Below are positions 41,747 through 42,257 of a DNA stretch of 64,000 bases, piece after piece; position 1 is the first letter of the stretch, and each line of letters begins with the position of its first letter. The notes beneath the pieces are model-generated. The model saw only the letters and a program-made list of their open reading frames with translations. It made no database searches and was not told the origin of the DNA. The stretch is from the IMG/VR virus record IMGVR_UViG_3300012933_000155, positions 71,079 through 135,078 of that record. The stretch is one strand, 5' to 3'. The translations under genes and the position numbers were made by a program. The stretch is from a virus.

Positions 41747-41811
41747 TATAAACCTCGCAATGTAGTGTGATTTTTAACACATCATTGCGAGTTAAGTAAA
41801 ATATTATTGGT

Positions 41812-42130
41812 CTATAGGTGATCCACTACCTCAAAGTGTGGCATATAACCCGTCCTCATCGTGGTGCGACGGTAGAAGCGAGACCAACGCAAATTTATGG
41901 GACTACCACCTGATGCTTAAACGTCTACCCTCTGCGTAGAAACGTTTCCCATATCTTAATAGTTGAAAGTTTGCCGGGTCATAGTAATTGCGATAGAGGG
42001 CCCGGGCTGGTTAGAATTTCCCGATGAATCATATTCTAACAATAACAGCGAATACAGCAAATTCCCATTACGGGTTAGCGAGACATAGACAATCCTCCGC
42101 TATAATTTTTGAATTCATCGTCGCCTATAG
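41812..42130 (+). ncRNA. Putative structured non-coding RNA of unknown class
   Basis: About 510-nt ORF-free gap; terminal helix CTATAGGTGA/TCGCCTATAG; multiple internal hairpins with G-U pairs favouring the + strand. Confidence 0.5.
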
Positions 42131-42257
42131 TTCCTCAAGAATGTTTTTTGGCTTGTAGATTTTACATCTACTCGCCATTGCCTAAGAATATCTAAACAAA
42201 TACCATTGATATAACCCGCAAACATTTCCGATAAATACTATATCCGGAGACATGTAA

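Follow-up and report, generated by a model that had tools for sequence, protein, structure and literature searches.

Gene neighbourhood of a large ORF-free gap

The window analysed here, i.e. the final 64 kb of an IMG/VR virus record of 135 kb for which CheckV estimates a completeness of 39%, contains a stretch of 511 nt (41747-42257) that is covered by no open reading frame (ORF). It is located between a gene for a MazG-like pyrophosphatase (mazG) and one for a head-tail adaptor Ad2 / gp13-like neck protein, the latter being followed by genes for a dNMP kinase and a tail sheath protein of 1169 aa (Table 1). Based on the neck protein, the closest cultured relatives were Xanthomonas phage XaC1 (41% identity) and the Rak2-like Alcyoneusvirus/121Q group (36%), which are jumbo phages of ~350 kb sharing the neck - dNMP kinase - sheath order. 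An earlier interpretation of this DNA, made from its letters without database searches (hereafter the sequence-only reading), had placed the gap in a T4-like virion region. The source phage is, however, a Rak2/XaC1-like jumbo phage and not T4 proper.

As that reading had also noted, no other ORF-uncovered stretch of the window is as long, the runner-up measuring 287 nt, and its G+C content is higher than that of other intergenic DNA. The core of the element described below reached 43%, while the window as a whole has 40% and its remaining uncovered DNA 33.5%. In the next ORF-free gap by length (14058-14344, 287 nt, 45% G+C), a GGGGAC...GTCCCC hairpin precedes a T-rich tract, and a promoter-like site (TTGACT...TATAAT) is also present. 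This second gap was not conserved in three complete genomes of relatives and is therefore probably a terminator-promoter region of the usual kind.

Putative expression signals were located on both sides of the conserved part of the 511-nt gap. The hairpin that follows the mazG stop codon lies outside of the conserved element: at this place, relatives have GC hairpin and U-tract terminators or the end of a small ORF, and in many members a canonical terminator ends exactly where the 5' end of the RNA begins. Two hairpins had been described as flanking the RNA and separate from it, which proved correct for this one (41754-41791) but not for that at 42155-42171, which is real, covaries in homologues and belongs to the conserved element. 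The sigma-70-like site was peculiar to the window and no promoter conserved across the family was detected in the upstream alignment, so that the RNA may come from read-through or from processing of a longer transcript. Within the window, GCCTAAGAAT did not behave as a repeated promoter-like motif.

On the 3' side, the late-promoter-like motif and the ribosome-binding site of the neck gene were also found in relatives without the RNA, one of which has a MazG 96% identical to that of the window. The late-promoter-like motif GATAAATA was enriched in the window, with 19 matches versus 8.9 expected. In its T4-late-promoter-like form, GATAAATAC, it occurred at 42230-42241 and at 18 other sites. The copy preceding the neck gene forms part of an inverted repeat, and the GGAG ribosome-binding site belongs to the 3' arm of this repeat; in the related locus L050, this inverted repeat (2953-2990) reads TCTCCAGATAA...TTATCTGGAGA.

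Table 1. Features of the mazG-neck locus (window positions) and RNA copies in a second jumbo phage genome
Feature	Position	Strand	Description
mazG, MazG-like pyrophosphatase	41333-41746		137 aa; upstream of the RNA
Upstream hairpin	41754-41791	+	just after the mazG stop codon; terminator-like; in both window folds
Sigma-70-like promoter	41774-41802	+	TTAACA-17-TAAAAT; 10/12 matches; predicted start near 41809-41811
Putative structured RNA	41810-42192	+	covariance-model core 41810-42182; conserved tail to ~42190; ends set by conservation only
PK3, 5' H-type pseudoknot	41816-41841	+	AGGT (41816-19)/ACCT (41828-31) crosses CCAC (41823-26)/GTGG (41838-41)
P2 hairpin	41850-41872	+	CCGTC/GACGG; 99% of cells paired; 3 pairs change on both sides
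P3 hairpin	41878-41890	+	GCG/CGC; middle pair UA29/CG21
P4 domain	41896-41953	+	TATGGGA/TCCCATA, AACG/CGTT, CTAC/GTAG
P5 hairpin	41974-42005	+	CCGGGTC/GGCCCGG; 18-nt nearly invariant loop
PK4	41989-42177	+	P5 loop TGCG (41989-92)/CG(C)CA (42173-77); overlaps the 3' strand of lower P10
P6 and P6a	42006-42049	+	P6, GCTG/CAGC; P6a, GTTAGAAT/ATTCTAAC; loop is the 5' strand of PK1
PK1	42022-42120	+	CGATGAA (42022-28, P6a loop)/TTCATCG (42114-20); joins the region 3' of P7
P7	42058-42111	+	CAAA/TTTG; encloses P8 and P9; all pairs change on both sides
P8	42064-42074	+	CCC/GGG; both-side change in 3/3 pairs
P9	42076-42102	+	TAGCG/CGCTA; both-side change in 4/5 pairs
19-nt block (P9 loop)	42080-42098	+	GAGACATAGACAATCCTCC; CCUCC core and tandem AGACA
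Direct repeat	42133-42190	+	CCTCAAGAAT (42133-42) and CCTAAGAAT (42181-89); flanks a U-run and P10
P10 hairpin	42150-42176	+	GGC/GCC and GTAGAT/ATCTAC; covaries, many U-G pairs
Neck-gene signals	42230-42260	+	late-promoter-like GATAAATACTAT, GGAG ribosome-binding site, neck-gene ATG; all downstream of the RNA
Neck gene, head-tail adaptor Ad2 / gp13-like	42258-43013		251 aa; downstream of the RNA
RNA copy L189	G005:30234-30673		94.7 bits
RNA copy L190	G005:251014-251444		77.5 bits

Distribution of the element among phages

The neck protein was used as a query and 80 related loci were retrieved. Most of these had only 44-87 nt between mazG and the neck gene; in eight, the window included, the gap holds an ORF-free element 70-94% identical to that of the window, and alignment of these eight loci revealed invariant blocks together with visible compensatory changes. 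The exact 19-nt block was present in 65 IMG/VR contigs, all but one of which were homologous over about 41805-42192. A second conserved motif provided 26 further loci, with variant 19-mers, bringing the IMG/VR total obtained from the two motifs to about 90 contigs. Among metagenome contigs, 41 contained the exact 19-mer and 34 of these matched the covariance model, many being the same records as in IMG/VR. Homology among relatives was restricted to the span of the RNA (41810 to ~42192), and the covariance model (R1) recognized the window with 434 bits (E = 1e-106). More than 100 related phage sequences carry the element, with compensatory mutations that preserve its fold.

The family has so far been seen only on viral or metagenome contigs. 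A search of 185,579 bacterial and archaeal species genomes with the 19-mer gave three matches, none of which fitted the covariance model; these were considered as chance occurrences, and the one that was inspected sits in an apparent coding sequence. Likewise, blastn of the gap against GenBank phages gave no match, and covariance-model searches detected no copy in Xanthomonas phage XaC1, in Klebsiella phage Muenster or in two complete genomes of 367 kb (G001) and 360 kb (G002). One copy was found in the window's own record and one in a complete genome of 364 kb (G004). A 277-kb jumbo phage with terminal repeats, which also carries an Ad2-like gene (G005), contained two diverged copies: one precedes a 209-aa ORF and then the Ad2 gene, and the other is surrounded by small unknown ORFs.

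A second, unrelated phage lineage (L093, L099, L154, L158, L162 and L177) carries the RNA in a different gene context, upstream of another conserved block of small genes. In two of its loci (L093 and L099), the large terminase gene is found at ~2.5 kb from the RNA. The RNA gene is accessory and, in freshwater Rak2/XaC1-like jumbo phages, it is located between mazG and the neck (gp13/Ad2-like) gene, in a slot of variable content. Some relatives have other inserts in this slot, namely a methyltransferase, MutH-like ORFs, two ORFs of ~90 aa or unknown ORFs (190-290 aa). The junction is thus an insertion hotspot (L014, L018, L026, L031, L038, L048, L051, L055, L059, L067 and L070). Its inserts include a SAM methyltransferase on the opposite strand (L026, 2247-2867) and weak MutH-like ORFs in L038 and L059.

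Fold and covariation

Comparative data indicate that positions 41810 to ~42192 of the + strand are a structured non-coding RNA gene of ~380 nt, belonging to a family absent from Rfam. Its length is about 375-385 nt, instead of the roughly 320 nt proposed by the sequence-only reading, which had also left the pseudoknots unseen. The predicted fold comprises about 14 nested helices and three covarying pseudoknots, to which a likely base triple is added; two of its hairpin loops are long and almost invariant. The pseudoknots are the H-type knot at the 5' end, the pairing of the P6a loop with the 3' region and that of the P5 loop with the 3' tail.

The covariance model was built from 22 sequences, and its structure came from scanning column pairs in an independent MAFFT alignment. 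In the latter, 92.7% of the cells were paired, compared with 37-43% when partners were slid, and 33 pairs changed on both sides, compared with 7-12. Alignment of 61 distinct members to the model (67 nested pairs) gave 96.2% paired cells versus 35-47% for slid partners, a percentage inflated by the fitting of this alignment to the model structure. Both-side changes occurred in 56 of the 67 pairs (17-22 when slid) and in 650 cells (65-77 when slid), although such cell counts overstate the number of independent events among related sequences. The pseudoknots offer a cleaner test because they were not part of the model to which the alignment was fitted: 97.4% of their cells were paired, versus 27-49% for slid partners. 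The same helices were recovered in the independent MAFFT alignment. The minimum free energy fold of the single sequence contained the helices of the sequence-only reading, but folding energies were not remarkable (z-scores of -2.6 for the gap and -1.2 when restricted to the core), which indicates that the support for the fold is comparative and not thermodynamic.

A coding function was also considered, since a conserved short ORF had been named as an observation that would contradict the RNA proposal. Neither a conserved ORF or frame nor a 3-base periodicity, as expected for a gene or pseudogene, was found in the homologues. The median longest stop-free run was 43 codons on the + strand and 58 on the - strand, versus 56 in shuffled sequences, and variability was similar at the three codon positions (0.179, 0.189 and 0.184).

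The orientation of the RNA was deduced from wobble pairs. Over 82 pairs and 61 sequences, 214 G-U cells were counted versus 40 A-C cells, and this excess assigns the structure to RNA of the + strand, in agreement with the sequence-only reading. That reading had mentioned a structured replication origin as an alternative, and the presence of a large non-coding gap beside structural and packaging genes could fit a DNA-level element of this type, or else a packaging signal or a recombination site, whose hairpins would form in single-stranded DNA. The strand-specific wobble excess, the pseudoknots and triple-like covariation disfavour such an element, as do the GNRA- and UUCG-type loops seen in inserted hairpins among homologues. 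Moreover, the RNA is absent from complete close relatives, which still must replicate and package their DNA. This explanation is considered extremely improbable.

Most of the helices initially proposed were recovered and covaried in homologues, namely CCAC/GTGG, CCGTC/GACGG, TATGGGA/TCCCATA with AACG/CGTT and CTAC/GTAG, CCGGGTC/GGCCCGG, GTTAGAAT/ATTCTAAC and CCC/GGG. The long-range closing helix CTATAGGTGA/TCGCCTATAG (10 bp) has to be abandoned: it exists in the window and in its minimum free energy fold but is not conserved, positions 41817 and 42125 being canonical in 40 of 61 sequences. Instead of forming this helix, the 5' AGGT pairs locally with ACCT within PK3, where both-side changes were found in 3/4 pairs of AGGT/ACCT and in 4/4 pairs of CCAC/GTGG.

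Conserved features also occur outside of the helices. The P4 domain has a conserved 17-nt internal loop holding GACTACC...GATGC. In a mutual-information scan, its pair 41899-41950 was G-C in sequences with A at 41961 and A-U in those with G at 41961 (28 versus 27 sequences), a pattern for which a base triple is the likely explanation. The CAA of the P3 loop may pair with TTG (41963-65); these positions are 94-98% canonical but invariant, without both-side changes. P5 showed both-side changes in 6/7 pairs with 99.8% of cells paired, and P6a in 8/8 pairs. Each pair of PK1 was canonical in 59-60 of 60 cells, two of them with UA34/CG25 and GC48/AU10. The 19-nt block forming the P9 loop was invariant in alignments A1-A4, the sequences of A2-A4 having been collected with that very word.

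At the 3' end, the covariation pattern is compatible with more than one arrangement. PK4 occurs in four combinations of exact complementarity (TGCG/CGCCA, AGCG/CGCCT, TGTG/CACCA and AGTG/CACCT), with counts of UA35/AU24 and CG55/UA5. Its 3' strand (42173-77), with the sequence C(G/A)CC(A/U), has two complementary partners, the P5 loop and, in lower P10, the 5' strand GGC or GGT, and each of these two pairings tracks the sequence changes. Because PK4 overlaps the 3' strand of lower P10, the two are mutually exclusive. The RNA may have two conformational states or, alternatively, a triple-stranded arrangement at this strand. Neither of the 3' states could be linked to a terminator or a ribosome-binding site.

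Relation to known RNAs and possible roles

Comparison with Rfam 15 (4227 models) at the gathering threshold gave 0 hits in the whole window and in 19 further member loci. Relaxed scans (E<=10 and E<=5) of the window region and 10 other member loci produced only inconsistent chance matches to snoRNA, miRNA and RNAI models. ARAGORN detected 0 tRNA or tmRNA genes in the window and in 60 member loci. The sequence-only reading had proposed an undescribed structured phage RNA different from tRNA, tmRNA and RNase P RNA; these searches, the strong covariation in homologues and the lack of coding selection all agree with it. No paper describing this RNA was found in a literature search. A survey of candidate structured RNAs in IMG/VR reported motifs averaging 67 nt, with no mention of mazG, neck genes or jumbo phages (PMC10690425).

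Among RNAs of comparable length (about 360-400 nt) with several pseudoknots, tmRNA and bacterial RNase P RNA can be distinguished from the present family. The former is defined by a tRNA-like domain built from both ends and by a tag reading frame, the latter by the conserved regions CR-I to CR-V and the P4 pseudoknot. The present RNA shows neither a tRNA-like end nor conserved blocks of the P4 type, and Rfam models of both remained without a match at E<=10. The pRNA of phage phi29 is another phage-encoded structured RNA, and the position of the window RNA near the neck gene (first lineage) or ~2.5 kb from the large terminase gene (second lineage) recalls it. However, the likeness is one of gene position only. 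There is no Rfam match and the window RNA is more than twice as long. The existence of complete relatives without the RNA also argues against an essential role in the packaging motor.

By kind, the so-called ornate RNAs GOLLD (RF01998) and ROOL (RF03087) are the closest known RNAs, without homology. They too are large, multi-pseudoknotted accessory ncRNAs of phages and prophages with long conserved loops and an unknown biochemical function, discovered by comparative analysis of environmental sequences; GOLLD, like the window RNA, also came from lake metagenomes. Their covariance models, however, gave no sequence or structure match. At about 380 nt, the window RNA is also shorter, the two figures for GOLLD and ROOL being about 580 and 800 nt. 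GOLLD and ROOL often adjoin tRNAs, whereas no tRNA gene was found near any of the 60 member loci examined here.

Group I introns of T4-like phages (td, nrdB, nrdD) resemble the window RNA by their ORF-less size, pseudoknotted core, conserved single-stranded joints and patchy distribution. This raises the question of a selfish or mobile ribozyme-like element, e.g. a free-standing derivative of a group I-type intron, persisting in an insertion hotspot without serving the phage. The occurrence of the RNA in the mazG-neck hotspot and its patchy presence in two phage lineages are consistent with mobility, its size and pseudoknotted core fall within the group I intron range, and a weak homing-endonuclease-like ORF was found downstream of the RNA in L093. 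Nevertheless, the RNA lies between genes and interrupts none: the MazG and neck proteins on either side are full length and align end to end with those of RNA-less relatives. No group I splice-site signature was identified in the window RNA and no Rfam intron model, Intron_gpI included, matched even at E<=10. The covarying knots (P6a loop with the region 3' of P7, P5 loop with the 3' tail) also differ in topology from the P3-P7 knot of group I cores. Strong purifying selection on the long loops across lineages would also be unexpected for a non-spliced relic. We regard a mobile element of this type as improbable.

The main rival to a trans-acting RNA is a cis-regulatory role. In this case, the RNA would be part of a read-through transcript of the upstream early/middle operon, and its two-state 3' end (PK4 versus full P10, beside the U-run) would control the continuation of transcription or translation into the neck and late structural genes. 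In most members of the first lineage, a distance of 24-120 nt separates the RNA from the neck gene, which lies downstream on the same strand, and one of the G005 copies is again upstream of the Ad2 gene with one ORF between. The absence of a conserved promoter of its own and the mutually exclusive pairings of the 3' strand, both backed by sequence variation, would also suit a leader. On the other hand, the neck gene has its own late-promoter-like motif and ribosome-binding site after the RNA, which are present as well where the RNA is absent. The canonical terminator found immediately before the RNA in many members also speaks against a leader. In the more distant members L152, L187 and L163, whole ORFs (144-166 aa, or 664 plus 144 aa) intervene between the two, and no neck gene is found near the RNA in the second lineage or near the other G005 copy, so the constant position directly upstream of one regulated gene that would be expected of a leader or riboswitch was not observed. 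The U-run precedes P10 instead of following it, unlike a standard terminator, and a terminator scan found none. Finally, with 380 nt and about 17 helices, the RNA is far larger than known leaders. A leader function is accordingly held to be unlikely.

We consider it probable that the element is a stand-alone, trans-acting RNA gene of a new family. The RNA would act in trans during infection as a folded particle, i.e. a ribozyme, a protein-binding scaffold or an RNA-only assembly, and not as a neck-gene leader. Attempts to find a protein partner were uninformative: 234 ORFs of G004 are absent from G001 and G002, too many to be of use, and no neighbour protein of the second lineage was specific to RNA-positive jumbo genomes, nor did any partner co-occur in both lineages. 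PHROGs and Pfam searches on the neighbours of the RNA provided no function.

More speculatively, the family could represent a new large functional-RNA class of giant freshwater phages, either as a ribozyme or as a particle made of RNA alone or of RNA and protein, with a 3' tail alternating between the two pairings that covariation supports. As an accessory gene, it would move from one phage lineage to another and might serve to manipulate the host or to counter a defence. This broader proposal is put forward as a tentative one. Bacteria and phages have so far yielded few large RNAs with a complex tertiary fold. To our knowledge, nearly all of the characterised classes proved to be ribozymes, riboswitches or remarkable assemblies (RNase P, group I/II introns, OLE, GOLLD/ROOL cages). 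Over 100 natural variants, an unusually clear covariation that extends to three pseudoknots and a possible two-state 3' end make the present family well suited to structural and biochemical work. The 19-nt block is identical in every aligned member, most of these having been collected by searching for that word. Given the accessory spread of the RNA in a jumbo phage insertion hotspot, one may ask what an RNA of such complexity brings to the virus.

Some minor observations concern the P9 loop and the 3' repeats. The invariant P9 loop carries the anti-Shine-Dalgarno core CCUCC and, on the - strand, 42080-42098 looks like a perfect Shine-Dalgarno sequence separated by 7 nt from an ATG (GGAGGATTGTCTATG), with a stop after three codons. 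A pairing of this loop with ribosome-binding sites was envisaged but rejected, its reverse complement (GGAGG-N7-ATG) having no such site elsewhere in the window. No third strand complementary to both AAGAAT repeats was found in the region searched, which extended from ~800 nt before to 1200 nt after the 19-nt motif. In the mutual-information scan, repeat positions 42138 and 42185 changed identically (AA48, GG6, TT2). The regions 42120-42142 and 42172-42189 resemble an internal duplication, with TCGCC, 4-7 nt and CCT(C)AAGAAT occurring twice, and the two 3' copies co-vary as AAGAAT, AGGAAT or AGTAAT in both.
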